DNA of 64,000 nucleotides from a virus (IMGVR_UViG_3300028909_000001); one strand, 5' to 3'; counted from the stretch's first letter, positions 4,935-32,501 are shown. Translations and numbers: made by a program. The notes: generated by a model from the letters alone, not told the origin.

Positions 4935-5636
4935 TTAGATTTCTGGATTTCCGCCTGGTTCATCTTCACCATTATCATATTCACTATCTTCTGATTTTCT
5001 ATGCTTGCTATATAGATAAGCCCCTAAACCACCTAAACCTGCAGCGCCCAAACCTAATTCATAAGGAACTTTGTTGTTACTAATATGATTGGATAATACT
5101 TCAAATAAAGATTGGGGAGAAATATCATTCTTATGTAAAGCTTGTTCTGCTCCAGTTATAGCTCCATGTATACTAGGTTTAATAGTAGTATTAGCATTTA
5201 CATTATTAAATACATTACCTAATCCTTGACCAGCATAATGAGCACCTATGCCTCCACCTACTCCAAGTCCGGCAGCAGTACCTAGTCCCATGTCACCAAC
5301 TGATTTACTTTTGAATAGTTTACTCAATACGGATTTGGCATCAATATTAGCTGGTTCTGGTTTACTATTTAATTTAAGTTGATTTCCTCCAAAGCCATCT
5401 AATTTAATCTTATTACTTATAGAACCTAGATTAAGTTTACTAGATGGAAAGTCAGAACTAGAAGGAGCTTTAGGTATAGCTAAATTAGAAACAGCTGCCT
5501 CTGGTATAGAAGCACCAGTAGCCTCAGTAGCACCAGTAACTTCAGGTTTAAGTACATTAGCCAATTCTTCAAATGACTTAATAGGATTTGCAGAAGCTTT
5601 AATAAATCCGTTAATAAATGCGTTATTTAGATTCAT
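4935..5636 (-). CDS. FINGFIKA-leader protein with glycine zippers
   Basis: N-terminus MNLNNAFINGFIKASA; GLGTAAGLGVGGGIG and LGLGAAGLGGLG. Confidence 0.75.
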   Translation of the reverse strand: MNLNNAFINGFIKASANPIKSFEELANVLKPEVTGATEATGASIPEAAVSNLAIPKAPSSSDFPSSKLNLGSISNKIKLDGFGGNQLKLNSKPEPANIDAKSVLSKLFKSKSVGDMGLGTAAGLGVGGGIGAHYAGQGLGNVFNNVNANTTIKPSIHGAITGAEQALHKNDISPQSLFEVLSNHISNNKVPYELGLGAAGLGGLGAYLYSKHRKSEDSEYDNGEDEPGGNPEI

Positions 5637-6286
5637 ATACCTAGACCTTGTTGGGGTTGGGCTGATTGTGCTGGTTGGGTTGGTTGTGCAGGATTACTAC
5701 CATCCATCGGCCCACTACCATAAATACCTCCACCCATCATACCTTGTTGTTGCTGTTGTTGCATCATTTGTTCTTGTTGTTGCTTCTGCTGTTCTTCTCT
5801 CTGCTTCTGTTGCTCTTCCCTATGCATCTTAGCACGTTCATATTGATGCTTTTCTTTTAATTGTTCAGTCTTCAAATGACTCTGTGTTGCCTTCCCGCCA
5901 CTATGTAAATCTAATAGATCAGCTACACTTAATGTAACTGTAGTATCTTTTAACCCTCTAGACTGTTGTTTTGGGGCTAAATCATCACTTTGTCCTGGTT
6001 GTGGCTGACCTCCCTGACTCAGATCTTGCTGAGGTTGACCCTGGCCTTCTTGTTGCATTCCTTGGCCTTGACCCATTTGTTGAGCTAATTGAGCCATCTG
6101 TTGTGGGTCTGGTTGTTGACCTGATCCACCTTGACTTGGTTGTGGAGATTGTGAAGATTGTGGAGGTTGAGGTTGTTGCCCAGGTAAACCTCCTTGTTGT
6201 TGAGCAGCAGTACTATTAGGTGATGGTATAAATGCTTGTTTATGCATCATACTACCTATTTCTTCTAAGATTTGTCTGTAAGTCAT
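5633..6286 (-). CDS. Gln/Gly/Pro-rich low-complexity K-x-A protein
   Basis: HKQAF near N-terminus; long Q-rich tracts around a short ordered core. Confidence 0.75.
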   Translation of the reverse strand: MTYRQILEEIGSMMHKQAFIPSPNSTAAQQQGGLPGQQPQPPQSSQSPQPSQGGSGQQPDPQQMAQLAQQMGQGQGMQQEGQGQPQQDLSQGGQPQPGQSDDLAPKQQSRGLKDTTVTLSVADLLDLHSGGKATQSHLKTEQLKEKHQYERAKMHREEQQKQREEQQKQQQEQMMQQQQQQGMMGGGIYGSGPMDGSNPAQPTQPAQSAQPQQGLGI

Positions 6287-6349
6287 ATTAAAATTGGTAT
6301 TATCTCTATTTCAAAGTTCTATCTATTATGGAGATTGATGGTAGTTATA

Positions 6350-6571
6350 TTAATGATACTTTTGTAATAGTTTCTCACTTTCCCAGGCCACAGCTTCATC
6401 AATAATAAATTCTTCCAAGGATTTTTTAACATTAGCTAATCTACCTTGGTCTATTCTACCCTTTAATTTACTTTTAGGCAAATCAATATCTCTTAGTTGA
6501 GTTAGAGCTTCTATCAACTTATCTAATTTCTGTTGTTCGTTCAATACTAACCATACATCTCTAGTTATCAT
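6350..6571 (-). CDS. Hypothetical protein
   Basis: ATG-started 73-aa ORF filling the operon gap. Confidence 0.6.
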   Translation of the reverse strand: MITRDVWLVLNEQQKLDKLIEALTQLRDIDLPKSKLKGRIDQGRLANVKKSLEEFIIDEAVAWESEKLLQKYH

Positions 6572-6587
6572 ATAAGGTCTTCTTCTT

Positions 6588-8309
6588 TCATTTCTCTATT
6601 TCTATGTTGTCTCCTGGCTCTAAATCACCTCTGTTATATGCAGCAACTACTTCTTGTTCAGTTTTATATTTTTTAGGAGTGTTATGTTTGTTTTCTGTAC
6701 TTAGTCCATAAAGGCCCAAAGCTGCTTCATTACTAGGGATTAATACAGGTTGAAAAGATTTAACAGATAATAAATTTTTGCTAGGCATCATTTTAGCTAT
6801 AACTTCTTTACGTGCTTCTTCAGTGCCTGGAATATGGACATTAAGTTGGTCTCCGTCGGAATTTTTTGTATATCCTCCTATAGTTAAGAAACTTCCGTAG
6901 TTTGGTATTTCCAAATCGTAAGCAGTATTAGATTGTAACTTAGTTACTCTTTTAACTTTCTTCCATTTTAAACTACCATTATACACCTTACCTAAATATG
7001 ATATCCATTGTTCATTATTCTTTAACTCAACTAGAAGTATTTCAATTATTTCTTTTAAAGTGCTTTTACGAAATCTATCTGTTTTAAATTCCTGGCTTAA
7101 TCTATATTTTAAATTATAAAGTTCCTTATTCTTTTGTAATTTATATTTATTATTAATAGCTGTAATTATATTTTTTTTAACAGTTTCTGAAGGAAGTGGT
7201 ACTAAGTCATTAAAGTTATCACCTATACCTGTTATATCTTTTAAGCTATTCTCTAATTTTTCCTTCTTCAACTCATGACTTATTCTAAATTTTGTTCTTT
7301 CAACTAACTTTTTAAATGTCCCAGTATGAAATCTGAAGGAGAAATTATCTTTACTACTCAGCCTAGATGCCCCTTTATATACTCCATAATTTAAATTTAA
7401 CCGTTTACTCATATATCTTAAACCGTTAATTAAATGAATTGATGATGTGCAGATACTTATATTTATAACTGTTTTATTAGAAGAACTGACACTTACTGTT
7501 CCATCAGTTGAGATTAACCCATCTAATATACCTAGTAGATGTTCTTCAGGACCGTTTAAACTAAAAGTAGGTATTTTCTTATTAAAAGCTCCACTCCCTA
7601 TCTGCTCTTTTAACCACTTATTAAACCAGGCACAAGAAGCTCTAGTTTTACCTCTAGAAGTAAATTGCCCCATCATATTCTCACTAACTCTATCTATTTC
7701 TTTAACTCCATTTTCATAAGGAAGATATTCACTATTACATAAATCAGCAAATACTTTTCTATTCATTAATTTTTCTTTGGTAGAACCGGCTAAGAAAAGT
7801 TGATTAGCATTATCTACCCAACCATCACCTAAAACCATTCCTATAAAAAGTCCGGTTTTATAATTAAGTTGCAAGTTAAATGAATTTTTAACAAATCCTT
7901 TTCCTCGTATTCCTTTCATTCCTCTAGTACCCATCATACCTTCAGCTAATACACTTGATTGAATATTGGGTGCTATAGTTGTAACATCACTAGGACAATA
8001 CCTACCTACTGCCTCTTCGGTATCAACTTCTTCAATACCACTATCAGTATAAGCTAATAAACTATGATCTTTGGCTGCAAATATAAAATCCCCATCTATA
8101 AATTGTACCAAATATAAAGGTACATTAGGATGAATCGAGAATGTCTTTGGATTTACCCAATCTACTTCACCAGTTATAAGGTTTAATGATTTTACTTCTA
8201 CATTACTAGGTACATCATAAAGGATATTACCATTTATAGTAGTAGTGGCTGAATTTTCTATTCTAGGGAAATCTGAAATAGGTACTAGTGTATATTTATA
8301 ATTAATCAT
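6588..8309 (-). CDS. rpoC: C-terminal split-intein half with LAGLIDADG endonuclease, fused to beta' middle segment (SDGDQLNVHIP...)
   Basis: Block B AAKDHSLL, LAGLIDADG motifs GMVLGDGW and DGLISTDGT, intein end GGYTKN|S; C-extein matches the DGDQMAVHVP region of bacterial beta'. Confidence 0.9.
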   Translation of the reverse strand: MINYKYTLVPISDFPRIENSATTTINGNILYDVPSNVEVKSLNLITGEVDWVNPKTFSIHPNVPLYLVQFIDGDFIFAAKDHSLLAYTDSGIEEVDTEEAVGRYCPSDVTTIAPNIQSSVLAEGMMGTRGMKGIRGKGFVKNSFNLQLNYKTGLFIGMVLGDGWVDNANQLFLAGSTKEKLMNRKVFADLCNSEYLPYENGVKEIDRVSENMMGQFTSRGKTRASCAWFNKWLKEQIGSGAFNKKIPTFSLNGPEEHLLGILDGLISTDGTVSVSSSNKTVINISICTSSIHLINGLRYMSKRLNLNYGVYKGASRLSSKDNFSFRFHTGTFKKLVERTKFRISHELKKEKLENSLKDITGIGDNFNDLVPLPSETVKKNIITAINNKYKLQKNKELYNLKYRLSQEFKTDRFRKSTLKEIIEILLVELKNNEQWISYLGKVYNGSLKWKKVKRVTKLQSNTAYDLEIPNYGSFLTIGGYTKNSDGDQLNVHIPGTEEARKEVIAKMMPSKNLLSVKSFQPVLIPSNEAALGLYGLSTENKHNTPKKYKTEQEVVAAYNRGDLEPGDNIEIEK

Positions 8310-8382
8310 ATAGACACAATACGGTGACTAGTTGAACTTGTCAATTAATTTTCTCTCTATAAATAATATAATCTACAATACT
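6861..8382 (-). mobile_element. Split intein in the RNAP catalytic motif (IntN 13 aa at 8344-8382; IntC at 6861-8309)
   Basis: Joining the exteins gives YGAD+SDGDQ; IntN SIVDYIIYREKIN is followed by TGA. Confidence 0.85.
8316..8344 (-). promoter_or_regulatory. sigma70-type promoter for a leaderless IntC transcript
   Basis: TTGACA(8344-8339)-N17-TATTGT(8321-8316)-N6-ATG(8309). Confidence 0.75.
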
Positions 8383-11094
8383 ATCCGCACCATACCCCTT
8401 AAATACTAATGGATTCATTTTAATAGTTTTATCTTTAGAATTTGGATTAGCAATTAAATTAAACCCTAATAGATTATATTTATGCCAGGCTGGATCTCGC
8501 GTTATAATACCAGGTCTTACTGCCATCTCTTCCTTTAATGCCATAACTGCTAATGGACTATGTTTTTTAACATAATCAACCGCACTAATAGCTGGTACAC
8601 CCTTCATAACCAACCTTCTAATAACAAAAGGTTTATATATCTGCCACAGCATATCTTGAGGTACACTAGCCTGGTCTACATCCAATCTAGTATCTGGAGT
8701 TAACACAGCTCTTCCCACCAAATCCAGACTCTTATTAACCACCTTACTCTGAAACATTGTACTTTTAGCCGTTCCACCCTTTAATCCAAACATAGTAGCT
8801 AATATACCTTTAACATTCTTATCCTGGTGTTTCTTATTAATTGGATCACCCAAACCAAAGGCAGCTTTTACTCCATCATATTCATTTTGTTTTAATTTCC
8901 TAACTACTTCGTCCGGCACATTCTCAGTATTTTTAAGTGCATTGTTATTTAGTATGAGGTCTTTATATAGATTATTAACATCACTAGTTAATACTACATC
9001 ACCCATCTTACTAGCAGGTCTGTATTGGGCTGGTAGAATAGGTACTTTATGCAACATCAAATCTTTAGGATGTAACTTATGTTCTTTTAGTGTAGTGAGA
9101 AATTCTAACAATTTAACGGCATCATCTCTTCTAGTCTTCTTCTCACTACCTATATACTTCTTCATTTCTTCTATCTTCTTATCCAGATCTATATTATTAA
9201 GGGCTTTTTCCATTTCCCCATCCACTACCATATCATTAAACTTAAACTTGGTAACTCCTAACAACTTTCTGAGATAATCCTCACTAATAGGATTAGGTAT
9301 GGGATGATTAAGATTTATGTGATTAAACTTGTCACCTAATATGCCTATTATATTAGGATCAAATAGTCCGCCAGGTTCATGTATTAGTTCTTCTTGATGT
9401 GGCTTGAATAATGAAGGTTTCTTAATTTCACCATTACTCAAAGCAGTAGTATCCTTATCTGTTAAAGGTAGGATATTAAAGGTATTACCAACTCTATCTA
9501 CATTAATACCGGCAGCTTTTAAACTATCTATGAACTTGTTAAAGATGAATGGAACTTTAGGGCTGGGTGGGGTTTGGCCCAATTTAATAGCACGCCAGAA
9601 TTCATCATTCTGAGTACCTTTAACAGTACCTATATCCTCCAATACATGTCTGACATCATGACTTAGCAAAGCTGTAGTACCTAAATTTCCTATTCTCTTT
9701 GATGAACCACCTTCCACTGCTGACTTACTTGGTTGCCGGTCGAAACTGTATCCGGACCCCTGACTTCTAGTACTTAGTTTATCTTCACTAATATGAGTTA
9801 ACCTACTATAGAATAATGGACCTACAACTGCTTCAATATTTCTACCAGTAATTGGATCATATAGTTGTTCAGTATCATTTATATTATTCTTCTTTAATAC
9901 ATTAATTACATTCTTAATAGATGAATCCTTTCTAAACTGATCCATTTTAATAGTCTTACCAGTCTTCTCAGCTAATTTACCAAGGCCTAGAGTTATGGCT
10001 AAGGCTGGTGCAACTCTTGACGTGATGGACATGGAGTTAAGCATGATATCAACTGGCTTCCCATTAGGTAGTAGTGGAGCTTGTGAGTCTGATACAATCT
10101 TCGTTACACCCTTAGCTCCAAAGTAATTAGAAATCTTATCACCAGGTAATAGACTTCTTACCGTCTTGATATGTACTGTAATAAGTGGGCCATGTTTGGT
10201 TACATCCACTACTTCTCCATCATGTTCGTAGTCCCAGGCTTCTGAATTATCTTTGAATGCATGTTTTAATACTTTACTCAGCTTACCTAATGCCAAATCT
10301 GTACTCTTTAATGCTCTGGGTGAGTAAGCCAGGATTACCGGGTCTCCAGCTTTCAATCTAGACCCTACTATAACCACTCCATCTGAATCTATATTTTTAA
10401 TTTGATTATTCGTATATTTATTAGGAAATAGTGCTACAAATTTATCCTTGCCTGCCTCTACTCCAAATTTCTCTTCAATACTAAAATTGATCATTTGTTC
10501 TGCTGCCAACTTTTTAGCACCACTTTCAGTCACTGCAAAAGCATCCTCAAAGTTGTCTGAGCGGTACGGGATTATAGCAGTAGTAAGGTTAGTTCCCATC
10601 GCCATATTACCTTCTTTATCATTATAATTACTGTAAGCTATTACTTCATTAGTTTTAACTTTATCACCAACCTTCACTTTAGGGGTATGAGTAATAAAGC
10701 TTTTCCTGCCTAAATGAAAGTTATTATATAGTTGATAGGTAGACTTGGTTTTATCTGTATTATCTACTTTAATATGATTTTCAGTAACTTCAGTAACAGT
10801 ACCAGGTTTAGTTGCAGTTACAGATAAATAATGTTTACCATATAGTTCTTGAGTACTTTCTTTGTTAGTGTCATCTGAACTTTCTACTAACGGACGTTCA
10901 GGATTTACTAAAGGTATAGCTTGGAGAGAAGCCTTGGCTCCTAGTAACACACGCCCGCCGGAAACTGAATTTAGCCCAGTAATCATGTTAGTAGGTAAAG
11001 CAAATAAATCCCTACTCGAAGGCATGGATATATGATCTTCATTTAGTTTGTCCACCTTCTCAAAATTTCCCTTATTAAGTACAGTATAACTCAT
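8341..11094 (-). CDS. rpoB: RNA polymerase beta C-terminal / beta' N-terminal fusion ending in IntN
   Basis: Beta motifs RVLLGAKASLQAIPL, NFEDAFAV, GDKISNYFGAKG, RLTHISEDK; beta' motifs GGLFDPNIIG, VPILPAQYRP, SDVNNLY, TRDPAWHK, NPLVFKGYGAD; start moved to ATG 11094 (TATAAT-N6-ATG). Confidence 0.93.
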   Translation of the reverse strand: MSYTVLNKGNFEKVDKLNEDHISMPSSRDLFALPTNMITGLNSVSGGRVLLGAKASLQAIPLVNPERPLVESSDDTNKESTQELYGKHYLSVTATKPGTVTEVTENHIKVDNTDKTKSTYQLYNNFHLGRKSFITHTPKVKVGDKVKTNEVIAYSNYNDKEGNMAMGTNLTTAIIPYRSDNFEDAFAVTESGAKKLAAEQMINFSIEEKFGVEAGKDKFVALFPNKYTNNQIKNIDSDGVVIVGSRLKAGDPVILAYSPRALKSTDLALGKLSKVLKHAFKDNSEAWDYEHDGEVVDVTKHGPLITVHIKTVRSLLPGDKISNYFGAKGVTKIVSDSQAPLLPNGKPVDIMLNSMSITSRVAPALAITLGLGKLAEKTGKTIKMDQFRKDSSIKNVINVLKKNNINDTEQLYDPITGRNIEAVVGPLFYSRLTHISEDKLSTRSQGSGYSFDRQPSKSAVEGGSSKRIGNLGTTALLSHDVRHVLEDIGTVKGTQNDEFWRAIKLGQTPPSPKVPFIFNKFIDSLKAAGINVDRVGNTFNILPLTDKDTTALSNGEIKKPSLFKPHQEELIHEPGGLFDPNIIGILGDKFNHINLNHPIPNPISEDYLRKLLGVTKFKFNDMVVDGEMEKALNNIDLDKKIEEMKKYIGSEKKTRRDDAVKLLEFLTTLKEHKLHPKDLMLHKVPILPAQYRPASKMGDVVLTSDVNNLYKDLILNNNALKNTENVPDEVVRKLKQNEYDGVKAAFGLGDPINKKHQDKNVKGILATMFGLKGGTAKSTMFQSKVVNKSLDLVGRAVLTPDTRLDVDQASVPQDMLWQIYKPFVIRRLVMKGVPAISAVDYVKKHSPLAVMALKEEMAVRPGIITRDPAWHKYNLLGFNLIANPNSKDKTIKMNPLVFKGYGADSIVDYIIYREKIN

Positions 11095-11185
11095 ATTTTG
11101 ATTATATACTCTTATTATTGATTTCCACAACCTCAAACTTTAGTCTTTAATTAACCTGGAATATACATTAAACTAGGTTAGATTT

Positions 11186-11536
11186 ATGAAGAGTTGGATT
11201 ATTATTGTATTTAGCTTGATTAGTATTAGTATTGAAGCACAACAATTAAATAAAGTCTATCTAAATCACTTATTAGACGCTATTTATCTAGCTGAGGGTG
11301 GGGCTAATACTAAATATCCTTATGGAGTGATTGGAGATTTTAAAAAGAGTCCAAGAATTATAGCTGCCAATACTATAAAACATAATTACAATAACTGGTT
11401 AAATAGTAGTTCTAAAACAGATTTCTTAAGATATCTACAACAACACTATTGTCCTATAAATGCTAAAAATGACCCTAATCATTTAAATGATAACTGGTAT
11501 AAGAATGTATCTTTAATAATGAAACAGTATGAATAA
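11186..11536 (+). CDS. Secreted lysozyme-like / transglycosylase-like protein
   Basis: Signal-peptide-like N-terminus; AIYLAEGG...PYGV...HYCP...LNDNWYKNV pattern. Confidence 0.55.
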   Translation: MKSWIIIVFSLISISIEAQQLNKVYLNHLLDAIYLAEGGANTKYPYGVIGDFKKSPRIIAANTIKHNYNNWLNSSSKTDFLRYLQQHYCPINAKNDPNHLNDNWYKNVSLIMKQYE

Positions 11537-12206
11537 GTTAGATGCATTTATTAATGGTTTTATCAAGGCTGCTGGCCCACTCCCTCCACCTCCTCCACCT
11601 CCTACACCTCCTACACCTCCAAAAATTCCGATGATTTCATTACCACACAATGCTTATACTGTTGGTGGTCTCCCTCCAAATATGCATAATTTTGTTAATA
11701 AAGGTGGTAATACCCTTAATATAAATGCTCACGGTGGTCCTGATAGTGCTATTAATGGAGAATATGCATTTCAAAGTGATTCTAATAATTCTAAAAACTT
11801 GCTTTATAACAATGAACCACTAACTTATACTCCTCAAACATTGGCTAAACTTATTGGTCCAGCTACTAACAATATCAATAATATTTATACTACTGCTTGT
11901 AATGGTGGGGATTGCTCCAATACTAATGTGAGTCCAAACGAAGTGCTTAAAGGGTTTGCTACTCCAGCTATGTACCGTAAATTATTCCCTAATCTTACTA
12001 ACGTTGTTCAAATCCCTCCCAGGCATTATGGTCCATTAATTCCAAGTCAATTTAAGACTAATGAATACCCAGACGTAGTGAATATAATAAATAGAATTAT
12101 TAAAGATAGGAATCCTAATGATCCAATAACTACAAGCTTGCCTCATCAATATAATCTACAAGGTGGTACTAATTGGGTGGATAAAGGGACTTACTATAAT
12201 TACTGA
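11529..12206 (+). CDS. FINGFIKAA-leader protein with Pro linker and possible clan CD cysteine protease domain
   Basis: MNKLDAFINGFIKAAG, poly-Pro, LNINAHGG (H68) ... IYTTACN (C124). Confidence 0.6.
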   Translation: MNKLDAFINGFIKAAGPLPPPPPPPTPPTPPKIPMISLPHNAYTVGGLPPNMHNFVNKGGNTLNINAHGGPDSAINGEYAFQSDSNNSKNLLYNNEPLTYTPQTLAKLIGPATNNINNIYTTACNGGDCSNTNVSPNEVLKGFATPAMYRKLFPNLTNVVQIPPRHYGPLIPSQFKTNEYPDVVNIINRIIKDRNPNDPITTSLPHQYNLQGGTNWVDKGTYYNY

Positions 12207-12207
12207 T

Positions 12208-15063
12208 ATGACAGACCGACACAATGTATATGTAGTTGAATTGGATAAGGAGGTCTTAGCTAAAAAAAAGTTTTTAAAGTTGAATCCTAACTACAATCCA
12301 GAACTACCTCCACTTTATGTAGGAGAGACTGGTTTGAGTCCTGAAGCTAGATTCGAGAAACATAAAACTGGACTAAAAGCCAATATCTGGGTAAAGAATC
12401 ATGGGCTTAGACTTAGGCCTGAACATTATAAAGATTTAAATCCCATGCCATTTCATAAAGCTGAAAGAACCGAGGAATGGTTGGCAAAGAAGTTAAGGGC
12501 TGAGGGTTATCCAGTAGTAGGTGGGAATCCTAGAACCGTACCTTTGAAGAAGGAGGCTGGTGAAGAAGCGTTACAACCTCAACAAGCTAGAGTAATTAAG
12601 AAGATTCAAGATAAGAATACTTCAGGGTTAGTGCTTTATCATGGGATGGGTAGTGGAAAAGGATTGGTTATAGGCTCAAAGATATTAACACCTACAGGGT
12701 GGATAAATATAGAAGATATAAAACAAAACACAGAAGTGATTTCTGTTAATGGTGTGAAAGCTAATGTGACTGGAGTCTATCCTCAAGGGTATAAAGATGT
12801 GTATAAAATTACTTTTAGGGATGGTGCTACTATAGAATGTGATGATTCTCATTTATGGTTCACTCAATCTAGATGTGAACGTAAAAATTACGTTAAAAGC
12901 AAGGATCAATTTAAATATAGGTGGGTAGGTAAAGTCAGGAGTACAAGCGAAATTAAAGATACAGTATTATCTAATGATAATAGTTTAAATTATACTATTC
13001 CTATTGTGAAACCTATTCATTTTAAATATAGAAAACTTCCACTAGACCCGTATTTTGTTGGTTTGATTTTAGGAGATGGTAGTATTTGTGGAGGTGGCTG
13101 TGCGATAACAACAGCAGATGACGAAATTCTGCAATCAATTAAGTCTTTATTTCCAAATTTTACTCTTAAAAAATATTCTAAATATACTTATGGATTAGGT
13201 AAACCAAAAGGATATAACAGTTACATTGTTCAAGCATTTAAAGAATTAAAATTACAAGGTATGAATTGTTTTACAAAATTTATACCTGATATTTATATGT
13301 TTAACACAGTGAAATCTCGCATAGCATTATTACAAGGGTTAATGGATACTGATGGTACTGTAAGTAAAGATGGTATGGCTATAGTTTATGAGTCCGTCTC
13401 AAAACAGTTAGCAGATGGTGTGCAATTCCTTGTTGAATCACTAGGAGGTTTAGCAAAGATAACAACTAGAATTCCAACATATTCATATAAAGGAGAAAAA
13501 AAGAAAGGAGCTTTATGTTATAGGGTTTGGTTAAGTTTACCACCAAATATCAATCCATTTAGATTACACAGAAAAGCAATTCAAGTAATTCCTAAGACTA
13601 AATATAAACCAACTAGATATATAAAAAGTATAGAATATGTTGGAAAAAAAGAGACAATCTGTATTGCAATCGATGACCCTTCTCATCTATATATTACTGA
13701 ACATTGTATAGTTACGCACAATACACGCGAAAGTATTGAATCCTGGAAAGCATTAGGATTACCTAAGACTGATATCATTGTTCCAGCTTCATTAAAATCC
13801 AACTATCGTAAAGAGTTGCAGAGATGGTATGGCAATTCTAATCCTTCTAATATCAACTTAATTAGTCAACAAAGATTTGCTAATTCTAAGTTAAATACTC
13901 CAATATACAATACTGGTTTGCAGATAGTAGATGAAGCTCAAAAAGCTAAAAATAGTAATAGTGAATTATATCAAGCATTGGTTAAAACGAATCCAGCCAA
14001 GCGCCTTCTCCTTTCAGGAACTCCAATTCTAAATGATCCTACTGAATTAAGTAATCTTGTTAACTTAGTAGCAAAGAAACAAGTATTACCTAATAATTTA
14101 TCTGAGTTTAAAAAACAATATTTTAAACAGGAAGAAGTTAAACCTGGATTTTTTGGTAGATTAATGGGAGTTTCTCCAGGCATTCAATATAAGCTACAGA
14201 ATAAAGCTCAACTATCTAAGATTCTGGATAAGTATGTTGACTACTATAAACCTACTCAAGAAGGATATCCTACTGTGACGGAGCAAGAAGTTAATGTTCC
14301 TATGGGTGCTAAACAACAAGAGATATATGATACAATACTCGGAAAGACACCATTTTGGACACGTTATCGAATTAAACATAATTTACCTCCTGGACGTGGT
14401 GAATTAGAAGGTATGCGAGCATTTTTAAGTGGACCTAGACAAGTAAGCAATTCAACTGCTGGATTTACTAAAAATTTAAGAGACGTGGAATCCCCTAAAA
14501 TAGATGCAGCTTTTAAGTTTTTACAAATACAATTAAAACAAGATCCAAACTATAAAGCTCTAGTATATAGTAATTATCTTAATAATGGTCTTAGACCTTA
14601 TGAATCATTATTAAGAAAGAATAATATACCATTTGGAGAGTTTAGTGGAGCTGTAACACCTACTATAAGAGACCAGGCAGTTAAAGATTATAATGCTAAT
14701 AAATTAAGAGCATTATTAGTATCAGGAGCTGGGGCTGAAGGATTGGATTTGAAGGCTACAAATTTGACACAACTTTTGGAACCTTTTTGGAACCTTCCTA
14801 AAGAGAGACAAGTTATCGGAAGATCAGTACGTTTCCATAGTCATGATAGTTTGCCTCCAGAAAAGAGAAAGGTTTTAGTGCAACGTTATTTTGCCACACC
14901 AAAACCTAGTTTATTGGATAAACTTACATTCAATCCCAAACCTACTGGTACAGATTCATATATTAGAAATTCAATCAGTAAACCAAAAGATAATCTTAAT
15001 CAAGAAATAACTAATTTAATAGCCAAGAATCAAGAACCTAAATCTTGGCTTAACTACAATTAA
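12208..15063 (+). CDS. GIY-YIG-like domain fused to an SNF2/SF2 helicase with intein
   Basis: VYVVEL...LYVGETG; Walker A GMGSGK|T, DEAQ, LLLSGTP, GAEGLDL, QVIGRSVR; start moved to ATG 12208 (TATAAT-N7-ATG). Confidence 0.9.
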   Translation: MTDRHNVYVVELDKEVLAKKKFLKLNPNYNPELPPLYVGETGLSPEARFEKHKTGLKANIWVKNHGLRLRPEHYKDLNPMPFHKAERTEEWLAKKLRAEGYPVVGGNPRTVPLKKEAGEEALQPQQARVIKKIQDKNTSGLVLYHGMGSGKGLVIGSKILTPTGWINIEDIKQNTEVISVNGVKANVTGVYPQGYKDVYKITFRDGATIECDDSHLWFTQSRCERKNYVKSKDQFKYRWVGKVRSTSEIKDTVLSNDNSLNYTIPIVKPIHFKYRKLPLDPYFVGLILGDGSICGGGCAITTADDEILQSIKSLFPNFTLKKYSKYTYGLGKPKGYNSYIVQAFKELKLQGMNCFTKFIPDIYMFNTVKSRIALLQGLMDTDGTVSKDGMAIVYESVSKQLADGVQFLVESLGGLAKITTRIPTYSYKGEKKKGALCYRVWLSLPPNINPFRLHRKAIQVIPKTKYKPTRYIKSIEYVGKKETICIAIDDPSHLYITEHCIVTHNTRESIESWKALGLPKTDIIVPASLKSNYRKELQRWYGNSNPSNINLISQQRFANSKLNTPIYNTGLQIVDEAQKAKNSNSELYQALVKTNPAKRLLLSGTPILNDPTELSNLVNLVAKKQVLPNNLSEFKKQYFKQEEVKPGFFGRLMGVSPGIQYKLQNKAQLSKILDKYVDYYKPTQEGYPTVTEQEVNVPMGAKQQEIYDTILGKTPFWTRYRIKHNLPPGRGELEGMRAFLSGPRQVSNSTAGFTKNLRDVESPKIDAAFKFLQIQLKQDPNYKALVYSNYLNNGLRPYESLLRKNNIPFGEFSGAVTPTIRDQAVKDYNANKLRALLVSGAGAEGLDLKATNLTQLLEPFWNLPKERQVIGRSVRFHSHDSLPPEKRKVLVQRYFATPKPSLLDKLTFNPKPTGTDSYIRNSISKPKDNLNQEITNLIAKNQEPKSWLNYN
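12661..13722 (+). mobile_element. Class 3-like intein (354 aa) with LAGLIDADG endonuclease
   Basis: Starts GLVIGSKILTPTGW; DDSHLW, TICIAI and IVTHN|T give the WCT signature; GLILGDG and GLMDTDG motifs. Confidence 0.9.
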
Positions 15064-23759: not shown

Positions 23760-23778
23760 GCTATTAAGTAAGCAATTT

Positions 23779-23819: not shown

Positions 23820-23989
23820 CTTAAAAATAAATAATTTAACTTATTTTTAACTATAAGTAACTGTTTTACCTTATATACCACATTTACCCTCCTATCCACC
23901 TCCCTCCACCCCTCTCTGCATCCCCTAACCCTCACCTTTACCCTATAAACATTACTCATTATATCAAACTGTAGTATTATTTTATCTAT

Positions 23990-24337
23990 ATGAAACATAC
24001 AACTCGAATTACAATAAACCACCACTCCCTACCTCCAGAATACAAACTAACCCTGATAAATAAACTAACCCTCCTATACCCCCTCTCTTCAACTACTCAC
24101 TATTATTTAATCGTTCTTATACATGCCTTAACTAGCGCTACCACTAATATTACCTATTATGAGATTGGTAGATTCTTTTATAAACTATTTAAATGTATTA
24201 AGAATAATAAAGTTGAAGATAGAGTATATATTAATGCTAACCAATACTTAACCGAAACTGACATGCAAATCCTCTCCAACCTGATTGAATTCCATGACCT
24301 TACTACCGAACAAAATCAAGCTAATATCCAAAACTGA
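23990..24337 (+). CDS. Leu-rich small protein, possible paralog 1
   Basis: ATG ORF; pattern similar to the next two ORFs. Confidence 0.6.
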   Translation: MKHTTRITINHHSLPPEYKLTLINKLTLLYPLSSTTHYYLIVLIHALTSATTNITYYEIGRFFYKLFKCIKNNKVEDRVYINANQYLTETDMQILSNLIEFHDLTTEQNQANIQN

Positions 24338-25314: not shown

Positions 25315-25448
25315 GATTATTCATACCTTTAATCCTGGTAGTCTCCCTGCTCAGCTATTGGTTCTGGTCCACCTATATCAGAAGTGAAAGTAAAAGACGT
25401 AGGGATATTAATTCTGACATTGAAAATAAACGCTTTGATGACTTATGA
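25311..25448 (+). CDS. Small membrane peptide (45 aa)
   Basis: Hand translation MRLFIPLILVVSLLSYWFW...; ATGA overlaps at both ends. Confidence 0.6.
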   Translation: MRLFIPLILVVSLLSYWFWSTYIRSESKRRRDINSDIENKRFDDL

Positions 25449-25840
25449 AACTAACAAAAAGAGCTGATAGATGGTATGACGAAAACGATAATAGTTGGTC
25501 TACAGAAGAATCAGCTACTACATATTCACCTACCTTAACTAATTGTTATAATTGTAGAGATTGTAATGCTTGTAGTGGTTGTAGTGGTTGTAATGGTTGT
25601 AGAGATTGTTATAATTGTAGTAATTGTATTGATTGTAGAGATTGTATTGATTGTAGTTATTGTGATGATTGTAGTGATTGTATTGCGTGTATTAATTGTA
25701 TTACTTGTAGTGAGTGTAGTAGTTGCAGTAATTGTACTAATTTAATAGATTGTGAACCATCGCCCAGACCTAAAATAATTCAAAATGATACTAGACCAGA
25801 ACTGAATATTAATGATAGAAGGCTAGAACTTGAACTATAA
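25445..25840 (+). CDS. CxxC tandem-repeat protein
   Basis: Long run of Cys every third residue. Confidence 0.7.
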   Translation: MKLTKRADRWYDENDNSWSTEESATTYSPTLTNCYNCRDCNACSGCSGCNGCRDCYNCSNCIDCRDCIDCSYCDDCSDCIACINCITCSECSSCSNCTNLIDCEPSPRPKIIQNDTRPELNINDRRLELEL

Positions 25841-25975: not shown

Positions 25976-26785
25976 ATGTATTCACGTAGTCAGATCATCT
26001 CTAAATTAGTCTATAGTATTGACCAACTATCAGCTCAGAACTTGGTTGGAGATATACTGGTTACGGCTAAAAGGTCTGATCAGTATGACGGTGAATTTCC
26101 TAACAAGTTAAATAAGCTGAATGCCTGCTTAAAGAAGTTGTTTAGTAAAGGAGTCTCTATCGTAACCAGGTCTGATTCTGGTAAACTACATGCTCATATA
26201 GGTGTGGAGATGCCTGGTCCTGTCACTAACTTTGACTGGGTAGCTTTTGAACAGAGTGAAAGATACTACAATCTATATAAGCATTTTAAAGATAAGGATA
26301 GCTTGAAATTCTACAACTATTATACCAAGAAGTATAGAAATAGCCTCCCTACTACCTGGCAAGTTATTAATAGTAAACTAATGAGTATAGGTAAAAAGCT
26401 GGGTTTAGGTCGAATATTCCTAACCCCTATTAGAAAGAATCTAACTGCATATAAATGGTATTTAGTATCTAATGTTCCTTATAAAAGAGAAAAGAGAGAT
26501 AAATACATTAGATTCTTCTTTAGTTGGGGTATGGCGGTAGTAGATAAATGTCAGATATTAAATAAGTATACTAAAGCATACCGTAATAAGCTCAAGTCAT
26601 TTGCTGAAGGCTTGCAATTAACTAGTGAATCCTATAATATGGTTTTAAGAGATGTACTAGGTAATTCCTGGCATTATCGTGTTAATGAATTGATCAAACA
26701 TATAGATTCTTTAGACTCTTTAGAATTAATCAAATATAATGAATTAAAGTCAACTGTAGCCCTGCATTTACTTCGTTCTCAATGA
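25976..26785 (+). CDS. HUH (rolling-circle Rep-like) endonuclease
   Basis: RSDSGKLHAHIGV (HUH), GLGRIFLTPI, AYKWYL; upstream TTGACA-N16-TAAACT. Confidence 0.6.
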   Translation: MYSRSQIISKLVYSIDQLSAQNLVGDILVTAKRSDQYDGEFPNKLNKLNACLKKLFSKGVSIVTRSDSGKLHAHIGVEMPGPVTNFDWVAFEQSERYYNLYKHFKDKDSLKFYNYYTKKYRNSLPTTWQVINSKLMSIGKKLGLGRIFLTPIRKNLTAYKWYLVSNVPYKREKRDKYIRFFFSWGMAVVDKCQILNKYTKAYRNKLKSFAEGLQLTSESYNMVLRDVLGNSWHYRVNELIKHIDSLDSLELIKYNELKSTVALHLLRSQ

Positions 26786-27801
26786 ATAAAACATCCTTCT
26801 ATAAAGGTTTACTAGCTGAGTTAACCAAACTAACCAAACTATCTGAACTAGCTAAAGAACCATCTAAAAAACATTGGTATCAGAATCCTTATGTATTAGG
26901 AGGATTAGGTATTGGTGCTGGCGCTCTAGGTACTTATGGATTGAATAGATATTTTGATAATCCTGCAACAAGCCCAACCCAATCAATTACTACCTCTACT
27001 CCTACCACTCCTACCACTCCTGCCCCTACCTCATTTAACTCTTTGAATAATGGAATAGCTACTGGAGTTGGAGCAGGTTTAGGTGGTTTGGCTGTAAAGA
27101 AATGGGGCCTTAATGGAGTATCTGGTGGAGTTGATGCTCTTAGTGGAATTAATAATATATATGATAGTGTTTCAAATCCTGATAACTTAAGTCCTGGTTT
27201 AAGAGCAGTTCAAGGTGTAGGTGGTGCATCTCAAGCAGTATTAGGTGGTTTAGGTTTGGCTGGTAAATCTGTTCCTATGGGTGGATTTGGTAGTCTAGGT
27301 AGATCAGTATCTATGAGACCAATAACCAACCTTGCCTCCAAACTACTACCATCAGCTCTTAGAAGTACTGCCCCAGCTATACAAAGCTTCTTACCAGGTT
27401 TTGCTGCACCTCGAGCCATGACTGCTGCTGCTGGTAGTGTAGCTGCTGTACCGTTATCTGGTGGGGCTGCAGTTCAAGCTTTATTAAATGAAGGAGGAGA
27501 TAAAGCTCAACAACATTCAGATTTGCTAGGTAGTGTAGCAGATAGTCTAGTAGGTACTAAGAATAACCCTGGTATAAGACAGGAACTAAGGTCTGGCGAT
27601 CCGGCCTTAATCAATGATGCTAAACAAAGATTAAATAGTTTCTTTAGTTCTGGATCAAATAATCTAGTGACAAGTCCTGGTACATTAGCTAATATAGGTT
27701 ATAACCCTACTCCTTGGTCTAATAAAGGAAATACTGAGAATTTTCAGACTATTGCACATTTACTAGAACAAGTACGTAGAGAGGCAGAGTTAACCAAATA
27801 A
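26782..27801 (+). CDS. Glycine-zipper protein with variant leader (FYKGLL...KLS)
   Basis: Multiple GxxxG segments and a TP linker. Confidence 0.75.
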   Translation: MNKTSFYKGLLAELTKLTKLSELAKEPSKKHWYQNPYVLGGLGIGAGALGTYGLNRYFDNPATSPTQSITTSTPTTPTTPAPTSFNSLNNGIATGVGAGLGGLAVKKWGLNGVSGGVDALSGINNIYDSVSNPDNLSPGLRAVQGVGGASQAVLGGLGLAGKSVPMGGFGSLGRSVSMRPITNLASKLLPSALRSTAPAIQSFLPGFAAPRAMTAAAGSVAAVPLSGGAAVQALLNEGGDKAQQHSDLLGSVADSLVGTKNNPGIRQELRSGDPALINDAKQRLNSFFSSGSNNLVTSPGTLANIGYNPTPWSNKGNTENFQTIAHLLEQVRREAELTK

Positions 27802-27803: not shown

Positions 27804-28565
27804 ATGAGTAACTTATATAATGAATTTGTAAGCGGTTTCTTAAAGCTGGCTGAAGAAGAGAAGTGTGACGTAGATTTCCTCAAAGGCTATATTAAGCAAG
27901 CTGATGAAATAGTAGATATTTGGACGCAAGCCTTTGACGTACTAGCTAAAGAATCTGGTGACCCTCAATACAAGGTTAAGCTAGCTAATGAGATTATTAG
28001 ATTTACTCAACTACTACCTCAAATACATAAACAAGCAGATTTACAAGATACTGAGAAAGGTTATGAAAACTTCCTAGGCGGACTTAATAATGGAGGATTA
28101 AGCCAGGGTCAAAATTGGCTGGAGCATCAATCCTGGATGCCTCAATTTATACAGCAAGCATTACATAACAATCCAAACCTATTATCTAGTCTACTCTCTG
28201 GTAGTATGGGTGGTGGTTTAGGAGGACTATTAATTGGTGCATTGCTAGGTCATCCAATGTCTGGTCTGATGCTGGGTGGTTTAGGTGGTGCAGCTTCAGG
28301 AGCATTCTTAGGTAATCAAGGTATTAGAGATATGTTTAATTCTGGAGATGGAGTTCCCAAACCTACTCCTCCTCCTCAAGAACTTCCAGACAGGGCTCCT
28401 AGTAGTCTGAATCATGGTCCTGACGATCTACCTACTAGTGCTCCTAGTAATCAGAGTCATGGTGTTATAGAACCAACTCCTACCTCAGCTCCTACTAATA
28501 GTATTCCTAATGTTAAACCTATTAGTCCTGTTAATAATGCAACAAATACAGTACCACATAAATAA
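27804..28565 (+). CDS. Leader / K-x-A glycine-zipper protein
   Basis: NEFVSGFLKLAE, DFLKGYIKQAD, HKQAD; GGGLGGLLIGALLG. Confidence 0.75.
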   Translation: MSNLYNEFVSGFLKLAEEEKCDVDFLKGYIKQADEIVDIWTQAFDVLAKESGDPQYKVKLANEIIRFTQLLPQIHKQADLQDTEKGYENFLGGLNNGGLSQGQNWLEHQSWMPQFIQQALHNNPNLLSSLLSGSMGGGLGGLLIGALLGHPMSGLMLGGLGGAASGAFLGNQGIRDMFNSGDGVPKPTPPPQELPDRAPSSLNHGPDDLPTSAPSNQSHGVIEPTPTSAPTNSIPNVKPISPVNNATNTVPHK

Positions 28566-28569: not shown

Positions 28570-28782
28570 ATGTTTCTATATCTTACACAAATCCTTAAAG
28601 AAGCTAATGAGTTTGGTTTCGCTAATCAACCAAATACAAGTTTTAGTAATACAAATCCAGCTCCACAATCAGCTTCATTACCTCCTCCTAATCCTGCCCC
28701 ACGACCTAGTCCTGTTCCTAGTATTGGCGGTATGACACCTAATATACAGACAAACAGCCCAGGGTTTACCAGAACTATATGA
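28570..28782 (+). CDS. Small Pro-rich K-x-A protein
   Basis: ATG 28570, MFLYLTQILKEAN followed by a Pro-rich tail. Confidence 0.6.
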   Translation: MFLYLTQILKEANEFGFANQPNTSFSNTNPAPQSASLPPPNPAPRPSPVPSIGGMTPNIQTNSPGFTRTI

Positions 28783-29690
28783 AACTAGATATTAATGATT
28801 TTAGTGAAGGTGTTAAAGATATCCTGGCACTATATAAACAAGGTAACAATATCTTTGAAATGAAGAGTGGTGATTTATTCCCTCACAACACTTCTCAATC
28901 TACCTGGCAGTTCGCCAAGGATAATGGTAATATACATTTCTCTGATGGTACTCATACTTATAGTTTTAAAGGTGATCTAAGTGAGTATGATACAGAATTG
29001 GAGAAGATGCCAGAAGCACCACTACCTAATGTATTTTCCAATGCTAAGATTAAGGGTAGGGCTCAGGTACATAGATCAGATCCAGGTAGTATATATTTTA
29101 CTTTGCAAGAAGGACGAAATAATCCAACCTATACTTTAAAACATCAGGGAGATAGTAAATGGAAAGCTATTCCTAAACCTAGAAAAGTCAAAGCCCAACT
29201 AAAAGAAACAGTTACTCCTCTTAATGTAAACTTGGAAAAAGTAAAAGAAGGTATGTTAAAAGAGTTGGAGGAATTCATTAAAGAAGGTGATGGACCAAGT
29301 TTTTTTGATAATGCCAATCATGTAATAGGTAGAGGAGTGCAAGGATTGGCTAATGGAATTACTAAACTTCCTCTATTACCTGGTAGAATTGGTGGAGAAG
29401 TACCAGTACAACAATCAGATAACGGTCCAATATCTACTGAGGGTGCAGGAACTATAGCCGGTAATGCCTTGCTAGCTAGTGGGATAGGTGCTGGTAGTGG
29501 TTTATTATATCATTTAGCTAAACGTAATCTGTTAAATACGACTCAAGAAAATGCTGAAGAAGATGCAGAAGGTGGAAAACTTGGTAAAAGAGTGATGTTA
29601 CCAGCTCTAGGTATGGCTGGTTTAAATATAGCTGGTAGACAGATGCTACCTAACGCTATTAATGATCCTAAATTAAACATATTTCCTTAA
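28779..29690 (+). CDS. Putative virion protein with C-terminal glycine zippers
   Basis: DFSEGV...YKQG and FIKEG variants of the motif. Confidence 0.7.
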   Translation: MKLDINDFSEGVKDILALYKQGNNIFEMKSGDLFPHNTSQSTWQFAKDNGNIHFSDGTHTYSFKGDLSEYDTELEKMPEAPLPNVFSNAKIKGRAQVHRSDPGSIYFTLQEGRNNPTYTLKHQGDSKWKAIPKPRKVKAQLKETVTPLNVNLEKVKEGMLKELEEFIKEGDGPSFFDNANHVIGRGVQGLANGITKLPLLPGRIGGEVPVQQSDNGPISTEGAGTIAGNALLASGIGAGSGLLYHLAKRNLLNTTQENAEEDAEGGKLGKRVMLPALGMAGLNIAGRQMLPNAINDPKLNIFP

Positions 29691-30000: not shown

Positions 30001-30339
30001 ATGAATAAAGCTGAATTGATAAAAGAAGCAATCTCTGCTGAATTAGCTAAAGAAGGTAAGACATTGTTAGACTTGGAGAGAGCCTTGAGTAAAGAGGCTG
30101 GTGGAGGTGGCTTGTTCTTTTCACCAGAATCGTTCACTAATGTAGGTAAAGGTCTATTAAATCTTTACGGAGCCTCAGCATTAGCGGTAGGTGCATTAGG
30201 AGGTACTGGTGCTTATATGGGGTTGCAGGCTAATGAGGATAGTACTAATCAACAATTAAAGAAAATCAGGGAAAAACAACAATACGAAGAAGCTACCAGA
30301 TCTTTAATAGAACATATTAAAAACCCTTCAACTCTATAA
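30001..30339 (+). CDS. K-x-A glycine-zipper protein
   Basis: SKEAG; GASALAVGALGGTGAY. Confidence 0.7.
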   Translation: MNKAELIKEAISAELAKEGKTLLDLERALSKEAGGGGLFFSPESFTNVGKGLLNLYGASALAVGALGGTGAYMGLQANEDSTNQQLKKIREKQQYEEATRSLIEHIKNPSTL

Positions 30340-30341
30340 TT

Positions 30342-30746
30342 ATGCCTAAGAAAAATATTGAGATTAAGAATCGTGAAGACTTCATGCTGCAAGGAACATT
30401 GAGTGAGGTACCTTGGGAACCAAAGTCTGAAGAACAGATTCAGAAAGATTTATTTAAAAGTAGTGACCCGGATAAGATACTTGATGCTTTTGAAACTCAA
30501 CTAGGTATAAAATCAAATAATGTACCTATTCCTAATGAGATCTATAAGTGTATATTTTTAAAACCATGTAGTGATGATGAACATGCTCAATTATTACAAG
30601 ATTTATATAATAACTCTAGAAGATATAGAGTTTTGAATCGGTCTGATAATTGGACCCATAAAGGAGATTTGGTAATGTTTGTTGAATATGTTGAAAACCT
30701 GGATGTTAAAGCAGAGTTGGAGAAAGAGAAGGAAAACAATATATGA
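30342..30746 (+). CDS. Hypothetical protein
   Basis: ATG ORF in the operon. Confidence 0.7.
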   Translation: MPKKNIEIKNREDFMLQGTLSEVPWEPKSEEQIQKDLFKSSDPDKILDAFETQLGIKSNNVPIPNEIYKCIFLKPCSDDEHAQLLQDLYNNSRRYRVLNRSDNWTHKGDLVMFVEYVENLDVKAELEKEKENNI

Positions 30747-31711
30747 ATGAAATTTTAAAGAAAGCTTCAGGCTATACTCCCCCAGAATTGATGTTGTTAT
30801 CTGCTTTGGGTGGCGGAAGTGTATTTGCCGGACTAAGGTTGCTCACAGATATGGGGAGTAAATTAAATCCACCTAAAGTAGAGCAAAATAAAATCAAGCT
30901 ACAATTACCGGAAAATAATGGAATTGCTTCAGTAACTCCTGGGGAAGCTGGTCCATTACAAGGTTTCGGTAAATCAGCAGAACCAATGCAGCCTGATTGG
31001 TATGTTTCTCCTCTCTCAGCCTTAGTAGGTTTGCCTATAGGATTCTTAGGAACTAAAGCGCTTTATGACAAATATCAGGAGAATCAAGGAAATGCTCAGA
31101 TAGCCGAAGCTAAAAAGAATTATACTAAGCAGTTAATGCTAGCTCAACAAATGAATAAAATGAGTGAAGAAACACCATTAGTAGATGCATTCTGTAAAGC
31201 TGCTGCAGAAGAATTGGATAAAGAAGCTGCTTCTTTACTTAGTTTGACAAAAGGTCTGATAAATAAAGTACCAGGTCTTAATGCTGTAAAAGGTTTCACT
31301 AATCAACATAAATGGGTTACCCCTATCGCAGGTTTAGGTGCATTAGGTGTGGCTGATAATTATGTAGAACCAACTACTAAATCTTTAACAGAAAATGCAC
31401 CAAATGCTATGGGATTTGCTCCCTCAGCAGTACCTGGTATTGATAGTAGTACTATTATGAAGAATCTCCCTACTGATGATGCTAGCTTGTTAAGTGCTGA
31501 AGATAGTTTATCTAATAAAGCTTCTAAAGGTGGTAATGCATTTGTAAACAAGCTTACTGGTAATTATTGGGGACAGACTAAAGATACTTGGAAGGCATTA
31601 GCTGGTTTAGGTACAGCTGGTACATTCGGTATACTATTAAATAATCATCTAAAGAAAAAAGAGAAGGAAGAAAAAGCTCAATATCCTGTAGGTGTTGAAT
31701 ATGCAAAATAA
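30743..31711 (+). CDS. Multi-K-x-A membrane-like protein
   Basis: KKAS, KSAE, KMSE, DAFCKAAA and KEAAS separate hydrophobic segments. Confidence 0.75.
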   Translation: MNEILKKASGYTPPELMLLSALGGGSVFAGLRLLTDMGSKLNPPKVEQNKIKLQLPENNGIASVTPGEAGPLQGFGKSAEPMQPDWYVSPLSALVGLPIGFLGTKALYDKYQENQGNAQIAEAKKNYTKQLMLAQQMNKMSEETPLVDAFCKAAAEELDKEAASLLSLTKGLINKVPGLNAVKGFTNQHKWVTPIAGLGALGVADNYVEPTTKSLTENAPNAMGFAPSAVPGIDSSTIMKNLPTDDASLLSAEDSLSNKASKGGNAFVNKLTGNYWGQTKDTWKALAGLGTAGTFGILLNNHLKKKEKEEKAQYPVGVEYAK

Positions 31712-32501
31712 TGCTTTTTATAGAGGAGTACTTAGTGAGATAAATAAGTTTGCTCAAGTAACTCCTCCTACACCTCAAATAACACCTTCAGCTCCTAGTC
31801 CAGTTATCTCAGGTATTAAGGCACCTCTTCTCTCTCAAACTCAGCATACAATAAATGATTTTGAAAGTGTTTATCCTAAAGTAGAATCAGCTTTGCCTAA
31901 TATAGAGAAATCTATTAGTAGTATACCAGATAATCAATTAGCTTCCACTACTCCTGAGCAATTTAAAAATACAGTCACTCCTTCATTTTCACAGATACTA
32001 GCACATCCTATAAATAGTGCTTCATTAGCTGATAATCAAGGTAAACTTAATGATGTATTTACTAGTTTTCAAAATTTACCTCCTGAACAGCAAGCAGTAG
32101 CAATAAATACTATAGGTACTTATCATCCAGATTTAGCCAAATTCTTAAGTAGTCAGATAGAGAGAGGAGCTAAATCCAGTTTTAGTAATGCTTCCTGGTC
32201 TGATTTAGGTAGTGCTGCTAAACAAGGCCTAACTGGAGATCATAAAACATTATCTAGTGTGATGATGCAAGATCCTAAAATAAAGTCTCTAGTCACTAAT
32301 TCTATGTTAGGGAGGGCTGGAGAACTTAGTGGTCAGTGGTTAAAGAATAATTGGCAGACTCTGGCTAGTGTGATAGGTGGAACAGCTTTGATAGGTTTGG
32401 TGTATAGTATTATGAAAAATACCGCAGCCACAGCCCAAGCTACCCAACAAACTCAACAAAATAGTTTACAACCTAGGCTGAATGCTCCACAATCATTATA
32501 A
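31701..32501 (+). CDS. Variant-leader protein (NAFYRGV...KFAQ) with Pro linker and C-terminal TM helix
   Basis: ATG 31701; LASVIGGTALIGLVYSIM. Confidence 0.7.
   Translation: MQNNAFYRGVLSEINKFAQVTPPTPQITPSAPSPVISGIKAPLLSQTQHTINDFESVYPKVESALPNIEKSISSIPDNQLASTTPEQFKNTVTPSFSQILAHPINSASLADNQGKLNDVFTSFQNLPPEQQAVAINTIGTYHPDLAKFLSSQIERGAKSSFSNASWSDLGSAAKQGLTGDHKTLSSVMMQDPKIKSLVTNSMLGRAGELSGQWLKNNWQTLASVIGGTALIGLVYSIMKNTAATAQATQQTQQNSLQPRLNAPQSL

Follow-up and report, generated by a model that had tools for sequence, protein, structure and literature searches.

A short N-terminal peptide with the core FINGFIKAA was studied in a window of 64,000 nucleotides (nt), which is the whole stretch of DNA analyzed here and corresponds to G000:C1:48898-112897 of the virus record IMGVR_UViG_3300028909_000001 (151,189 bp, 35% G+C; genome G000 below). 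This leader opens several otherwise unrelated proteins, and structure prediction indicates that it forms the first helix within a longer helix-loop-helix module. Judging from gene order, the primary home of the module is in the scaffold-like and glycine-zipper proteins encoded between the genes of a putative prohead protease and the major capsid protein. Because the leader is the predicted first helix of a module that opens scaffold-like head-assembly proteins, we propose, with a probability of about 0.45, that leader and module are a docking handle similar to the capsid-targeting sequence (CTS) of phage T4, which would bring proteins into the head core.

The nearest cultured relative of this virus is Salmonella phage Arash, which is distant (30% identity in the RNA polymerase and 27% in the terminase), while the relatives nearer than Arash are metagenomic contigs only, namely G001 (134.6 kb, terminase identity 77%), G005, G006, and G007. 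The clade is represented in metagenomes from peat and wetlands. The tail sheath, putative prohead protease, and major capsid protein genes all lie upstream of the window. The putative protease belongs to phrog_18299 and is encoded at G000:C1:40783-43341 on the minus strand, while the major capsid protein is G0_31850_32809, with 28% identity to the annotated capsid protein of Arash.

A shared N-terminal leader on unrelated proteins

The strict motif M-x4-5-[FY]INGFIKA[AS] opens four proteins of G000, in each case at the very N-terminus:

4935-5636, minus strand: P0001, 233 amino acids (aa), with the leader MNLNNAFINGFIKASA (nt 5589-5636) and a probable second helix IKSFEELANVLK
11529-12206, plus strand: P0002, 225 aa, with the leader MNKLDAFINGFIKAAG (nt 11529-11576), a poly-proline linker, and a C-terminal domain with clan-CD-like leads
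15884-16678, plus strand: P0003, 264 aa, with the leader MHLNEHFINGFIKAAL (nt 15884-15931), a proline-rich linker of ~55 aa, and a C-terminal part without recognizable fold
G000:C1:46914-47201, minus strand, 1.7 kb upstream of the window: a 95-aa protein with the leader MTIEDAYINGFIKAAL

The sequence-only reading, from which this analysis started, had listed strong copies at 5636 (minus), 11529 (plus), and 15884 (plus), and each of them was found there, at the N-terminus. It had also described the rest of these genes as unrelated, which agrees with BLASTP comparisons among the four leader proteins, where no similarity was detected past the leader and the proline-rich stretch. The described order of leader, proline-rich linker, and cargo is seen in P0002 and P0003, the linkers of which contain 36-41% proline. 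In P0001 the leader is followed by a glycine-rich middle part, a C-terminal glycine-zipper or transmembrane-like segment, and an acidic tail. The three genes in the window are located in different settings. The P0001 gene sits within the split RNA polymerase operon, and the P0002 gene is directly 5′ of the SNF2 helicase gene, which it overlaps. The P0003 gene, which is divergent from that of RNase H, looks like a separate cassette: a promoter-like site at 15849-15877 (TTGTAA-17-TATTAT with TG) ends 7 nt before its ATG, and its stop codon is followed by a perfect bidirectional hairpin terminator at 16691-16714.

The comparison of the nucleotide sequences showed that P0002 and P0003 share 26 of 27 nt over the motif, just as had been read from the sequence, and 8 of 9 codons (P ~0.015 under the codon usage of the genome), so that this pair may represent a more recent copy. 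In all other pairs of copies the agreement is only 20-23 of 27 nt, with different synonymous codons, and the DNA on either side cannot be aligned. In the relatives, too, the leader peptide is kept while the codons vary. The differences in synonymous codons between the copies indicate that selection acts on the peptide rather than on DNA or RNA. In the leader alignments, positions K13, A14, and A15 are invariant or nearly so. The hydrophobic run of the leader is about 12 residues long and is interrupted by Asn and Lys (mean hydrophobicity 0.22-0.45), after which a poly-proline or polar linker follows. A signal peptide or SAR domain was rejected as a reading of the leader, because this stretch is too short to span a membrane.

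The conservation of the core contrasts with the divergence of the proteins that carry it. The orthologues of P0001 in G001 (G1_52853) and in the metagenome loci L164 and L171 keep the core motif, while their identity outside the leader is 21-30%. The P0003 orthologue L157_805_1830 (FLDGFIKAA), which occupies the same place beside RNase H, is 21% identical outside the leader, and the orthologues of the 95-aa protein in G001 and L081 keep the core at 30-40% identity elsewhere. The fact that the core is nearly invariant while the remainder drops to 21-40% identity argues for an independent function of the core.

At one syntenic site, between the genes of the large RNA polymerase and the SNF2 helicase, the leader is kept and the cargo differs between G000 and G001. 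The G001 gene at the site of P0002 encodes leader, linker, and a GH24 phage lysozyme (PF00959, E=2.7e-13), in which the Glu/Asp/Thr pattern is retained. In contrast, the nearest Atlas neighbors of the P0002 C-terminal domain are the clan-CD peptidases C80, CHAT, and C11 (feature scores 0.92-0.93, TM ~0.5), and a clan-CD-like peptidase can be named as a candidate for this cargo, as a lead only. The lysozyme cargo has no homologue in G000, and the clan-CD-like cargo has none in G001. The Atlas search with the P0003 cargo gave no usable match, and neither did searches of PDB sequences with the P0002 cargo, the P0003 cargo, and the G001 putative protease. Among the leader proteins collected, the commonest C-terminal parts are glycine-zipper or transmembrane-like tails; others are Gln/Pro-rich peptides, DUF6321 in one cargo, or parts without recognizable fold.

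These data bear on the earlier proposal that a modular address tag has been shuffled onto new cargo. The peptide is indeed modular, because it is carried by non-homologous proteins and the cargo differs at a syntenic site, but such shuffling is true of few genes only, since most bearers are not diverse enzymes. The scan of relatives with a hidden Markov model of the leader, which had been suggested for surveying the diversity of cargo, was run and led to the same distinction: among the bearers listed there was non-homologous cargo (the lysozyme, the clan-CD-like domain, and DUF6321), but enzyme-like cargo was the exception.

The leader profile was built from 20 leaders over 32 positions and searched against 1.84 billion representative proteins with a cut-off of E<=1e-3. 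It matched 27 proteins, and in 23 of these the best match begins at residues 1-10; among the remaining four, three also hold an N-terminal copy and one looks unrelated. In all further matches with a readable genomic context, the gene belongs to the same phage clade and is located between the putative protease and capsid protein genes. Leader genes were found in G001, G005, G006, and G007, and in the metagenome loci L081, L136, L157, L164, L168, and L171, with one to eight genes in each. A metagenome motif scan gave at least 117 loci, mostly with unrelated internal matches, and the bare 9-mer arises by chance inside unrelated cellular proteins, which makes the N-terminal position and the phage context the discriminating features. 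Consistently, a degenerate DNA scan of IMG/VR with the strict motif gave chance matches only, none of them N-terminal. A word-based homology search with P0003 residues 1-40 returned only its own cluster, and tblastn of the 34-aa module against GenBank phages gave no match. Searches of the leader and module proteins against Pfam and PHROGs identified no family for the module, with sub-threshold matches to glycine zippers, which is consistent with the earlier remark that the motif had not been described.

The predicted helix-loop-helix module of the head gene block

The leader profile also found a longer module, F..GF.KAA...G.......LLK.A, which is clade-specific and N-terminal. While the sequence-only reading was right that FINGFIKAA is a real shared leader, it had missed that the leader is only the beginning of this longer element. 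The AlphaFold2 model of the scaffold-like family predicts for the N-terminal module a helix at residues 3-15, a short loop, and a second helix at residues 20-33 (pLDDT 66-76). The second copy of the module follows the same pattern, with helices at 132-144 and 149-175 (pLDDT 83-88), while the global fold of the protein is not confident (pTM 0.31). In these models the FINGFIKAA leader matches helix 1. Helix 2 seems to be retained in P0001 and its orthologues too (IKSFEELA..LL), while P0002, P0003, and the 95-aa protein have a Pro/Gln-rich linker in its place.

The module opens the gene located directly 3′ of the putative protease gene in G000 (G0_40117_40779), G001 (G1_65348), G005, G007, and the locus L136. 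In the last three, the product of this gene is an acidic protein of about 320 aa with three modules, an EF-hand-like loop, and a C-terminal glycine zipper; in the scaffold-like proteins generally, the module is repeated two or three times. It is also N-terminal in G0_36378_37178. In two further proteins, G0_37242_38114 (G000:C1:37242-38114, minus strand) and L018:6425-7324 (plus strand), the module is internal and begins there with Met-Asn-Lys-Glu-Ala-Phe, while the N-terminal part is DUF3008-like; judging from the sequence, this layout may reflect two fused genes or an internal start. The EF-hand-like loop DVDKDGKIEGSDL is conserved in the scaffold-like module proteins, in L136:4735-5715 (plus strand), L034:1248-2264 (plus strand), and their relatives; the match to EF-hand_7 is sub-threshold, and the loop hints at calcium binding by a head-assembly protein.

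The composition of the Arash virion, which was determined by mass spectrometry and has a supplement containing annotation only (PMC10585845), can be compared with these assignments. Purified Arash virions contain the RNA polymerase subunits gp206, which is the most abundant protein, and gp216, together with the helicase gp217, and they also contain gp218, gp221, gp222, and gp223 (PMC10585845). Among these, gp218 is the homologue of a 747-aa protein, the gene of which precedes the 95-aa leader gene in G000, and gp222 is the homologue of the putative protease. The 747-aa protein was also considered as the portal; this was rejected, as it is homologous to the virion protein gp218 and the annotated portal of Arash is gp204. 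The N-terminal region of gp221 reads ...LVDGLLKAAG and is followed by a glycine-rich transmembrane-like segment, while gp223 has three repeats that are similar to helix 2 of the module. Because homologues or look-alikes are detected in Arash virions, these data suggest that the RNA polymerase encoded in the window is virion-borne, and that the module-like proteins of the head block stay with the particles.

How such a handle could work may be outlined as follows. During prohead assembly, the module would bind either the partner to which the scaffold-like proteins bind or these proteins themselves, and a carrier tethered through a flexible Pro/Gln-rich linker would be built into the head core, from which it would later exit with the DNA. 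Genes within the polymerase operon or adjoining those of the SNF2 helicase and RNase H would have acquired the handle, and their products would thereby have become internal or ejected virion proteins. The fact that the same element is carried and repeated by scaffold-like proteins suggests that the cargo borrows the scaffold's own docking helix. Head-core binding, packaging, and any leader removal are what we infer from these observations.

Weak variants and neighboring genes

Four weaker variants of the leader had also been listed from the sequence, and these fared differently. They and a further gene adjoining that of P0001 are:

26782-27801, plus strand: P0004, 339 aa, with the N-terminal variant MNKTSFYKGLLAELTK and a transmembrane-like glycine zipper; the G001 orthologue starts with MNNTAFYQGILFELNK
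27804-28565, plus strand: P0005, 253 aa, with the tandem module-like stretches EFVSGFLKLAE and DFLKGYIKQAD, followed by a glycine zipper and a proline-rich tail
28779-29690, plus strand: P0006, 303 aa, with the N-terminus DFSEGV, a doubtful variant
31701-32501, plus strand: P0007, ~266 aa, with the N-terminal variant MQNNAFYRGVLSEINKFAQ, a proline-rich linker, and a C-terminal transmembrane-like segment
4261-4932, minus strand: a 223-aa gene product with the N-terminus MNFNVIQSFLEKSA; the G006 counterpart starts with MDFNVLKSFLEKAAAA

P0005 does contain two module-like stretches and is paralogous to G0_37242_38114, which bears the canonical internal module, but it scores only about 3 bits with the leader profile (2.6 bits), and its glycine-zipper matches are sub-threshold. 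P0004 and P0007 have an N-terminal motif of their own, FY[KR]G[LV]L.E[LI].K, which is retained in their G001 orthologues. The G006 gene at the position of P0007 (G6_25993) opens with the canonical MNKDAFIDGFVKAA; it was also considered as an orthologue of P0001, which was rejected because synteny places it at the P0007 position. The variant in P0006 is doubtful, as in its orthologue G6_23376 (34% identity) DFSEGV is not in register with the motif. The N-terminus of the 223-aa protein may be a further variant, and it is not significant with the leader profile.

The other features of the window that adjoin the leader genes or define the setting are:

1919-11136 (1919-4258, 6588-8309, 8341-11136), minus strand: intein-bearing genes of a split multisubunit RNA polymerase, with the Arash homologues gp216 and gp206
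11186-11536, plus strand: a 116-aa open reading frame (ORF) with a signal-peptide-like N-terminus and an AEGG...YPYG stretch, located directly before P0002 and overlapping it
12163-15063, plus strand: SNF2 helicase with a LAGLIDADG intein, homologous to Arash gp217
15392-15889: RNase H
34281-46669: tail-fiber block
60530-62206: large terminase

The 116-aa ORF has a homologue in G006 (27247-27603), and searches with it gave no match in Pfam and none among PDB sequences. The putative protease gene is also split by an intein, of the Hint/LAGLIDADG type, while its G001 orthologue (453 aa) is intein-free; other inteins are found in the RNA polymerase beta-prime gene, the second polymerase gene, and the SNF2 gene, so that four essential genes bear inteins. 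The region 16000-24000 of the window has a G+C content of 40-44%, compared with 32-37% elsewhere in the window, and has nearly no orthologues in G001. Its minus-strand ORFs at 22536-22901 and 23362-23751 are built of repetitive LTLTLT/MTLTLT runs. This region may be an acquired or hypervariable island. In addition, many small proteins of G000, such as the one at 25445-25840 of the window and many encoded at 116-150 kb of the genome, end in the peptide R-[KRL]-L-[ED]-x-[DE]-L; this C-terminal tag system is found in G000 beside the N-terminal one.

Comparison with known systems and alternative explanations

The closest functional parallel is the CTS of T4, an N-terminal peptide of 10-19 residues on the otherwise unrelated internal proteins IPI, IPII, IPIII, and Alt, which gives these proteins affinity for the scaffolding core before the head protease removes it (PMC9026906, PMC3012670). 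The leader, too, is a short N-terminal peptide within this length range that is common to unrelated, fast-evolving proteins encoded at scattered loci. Unlike the CTS, to which it has no sequence relationship, it is part of a helix-loop-helix module that is carried and repeated by scaffold-like proteins, and the putative protease of this clade belongs to a PHROG family other than that of the T4 enzyme.

Conserved N-termini are also known from the ejection proteins of giant phages, such as gp93 of phiKZ and gp53, gp54, and gp47 of SPN3US. In SPN3US, gp53 and gp54 share 15 identical N-terminal residues while being otherwise 34% identical, and were proposed to have a CTS-like element; the virion RNA polymerase subunits and gp47, which has a predicted transmembrane helix, are treated as ejection proteins, and processing at A/S-x-E was documented by mass spectrometry (PMC5694885). 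The bearers in SPN3US are paralogues, while those described here have non-homologous C-terminal domains and are known from their genes alone.

The module is similar in another respect to the scaffolding proteins gp8 of P22 and gp9 of T7. The helix-turn-helix coat-binding domain of these proteins docks to the inner capsid surface. The element described here is likewise predicted by AlphaFold2 to be a small helix-loop-helix, and both belong to proteins encoded between a protease or portal gene and the capsid gene. The present element differs in being N-terminal, repeated, and exported to non-scaffold proteins. Similarity to T7 gp9 was not detected, as hhalign of the leader profile gave a probability of 0.9%, and the PF05396 score was 16.6 bits versus a cut-off of 27.1. 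The order of tag, tether, and cargo, which is the only aspect compared, resembles that of encapsulin cargo-loading peptides, short terminal peptides that connect varied cargo through a flexible Pro/Ala/Gly-rich tether and dock to an HK97-fold shell. The sequence and the usual terminus differ, and the setting here is the assembly of a virus, with scaffold and protease.

Several observations weigh against the leader as a docking handle for the head core. It lacks a T4-type [LI]-x-E site, with no Glu in the core [FY]INGFIKA[AS], while in the T4 record the N-termini of Alt, gp22, and gp68 do carry L/I-x-E. The leader helix is moderately amphipathic (muH 0.33-0.53), and 1-27% of shuffled sequences attain the observed value. 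Most bearers are low-complexity, membrane-like, glycine-zipper, or scaffold-like proteins, with enzyme-like cargo in two only, and the leader gene of L168 is located among tail genes. The virion data come from Arash, a distant relative, and the clade itself has no cultured member; 116 of the 272 Arash gene products were reported from the virion (PMC10585845), which implies that detection there is of limited specificity. In addition, gp221 of Arash is motif-like only, and its homology is not demonstrated.

A different function would be that of an oligomerization or membrane-complex handle, which acts after ejection or in the infected cell, so that the glycine-zipper proteins, together with the lysozyme and the peptidase, would form an envelope-spanning ejection or lysis complex. 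The glycine-zipper or transmembrane-like ends of most bearers are consistent with this, as are the cell-wall hydrolase among the cargo, the signal-peptide-like ORF adjoining P0002, and the bearer encoded amid the tail genes of L168. On the other hand, the module is also found at the start of acidic scaffold-like proteins that are encoded beside the putative protease and have no obvious function at the membrane, and it is carried by small Gln/Pro-rich proteins as well. We regard this explanation as unlikely, and, since it is compatible with prior packaging, it does not exclude the docking handle.

The shared N-terminus could also be a relic of common descent, namely the slowest-evolving part of diverged paralogues of a single head-core family, without any addressing role. 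The glycine-rich parts are indeed paralogous between P0005 and G0_37242_38114, and between P0001 and G0_40117_40779; the module is repeated within proteins, and the codon agreement of P0002 and P0003 suggests a recent copy. However, the C-terminal domains (the PF00959 lysozyme, the clan-CD-like lead, and DUF6321) are non-homologous, and the core stays nearly invariant while the remainder falls to 21-40% identity, which makes descent alone quite an unlikely explanation.

We consider it improbable that the main role of the leader is to be recognized or cleaved by the prohead protease or a modifying enzyme, with K-A-A as the processing point. The near invariance of K13, A14, and A15, the location of the putative protease gene next to the full-module genes, and the union of targeting and cleavage in the T4 CTS could point to such a role, but K-A-A lies inside a predicted helix of the full module, and no candidate modifying enzyme was seen near the leader genes, where no search aimed at one was made. 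Lastly, an element acting at the nucleotide level, for example a regulatory site, translation enhancer, or recombination hotspot at the gene starts, would fit the 26 of 27 nt shared by P0002 and P0003, but was rejected as very improbable on the codon comparisons described above.

The docking handle can be extended into a bolder model, which we offer as possible, if on the doubtful side. In this clade of large, uncultured myoviruses with a packaged RNA polymerase, one helix-loop-helix "plug" would do two jobs, the building of the head core and the loading of exchangeable cargo, including the lysozyme and the peptidase that would be injected, and a graft of the first 15 residues with a proline tether would be enough to recruit new cargo. 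If true, this plug would amount to a head-loading code that is undescribed, open to engineering, and without sequence relationship to the T4 CTS.

To our knowledge, how large phages choose which polymerases, helicases, lysins, and counter-defense factors are loaded into the head is understood in detail for T4 only. If the leader is a docking handle, it would be a second, sequence-unrelated head-loading tag, and it would offer a mechanistic clue, because the tag is visibly derived from the module of the scaffold-like proteins. The injected proteome of uncultured phages would then become predictable from sequence, and the leader could serve as a compact tag for packaging foreign proteins. Even if the handle serves an ejection or membrane complex instead, it would still be an unannotated module that marks a set of virion-associated proteins of this clade.

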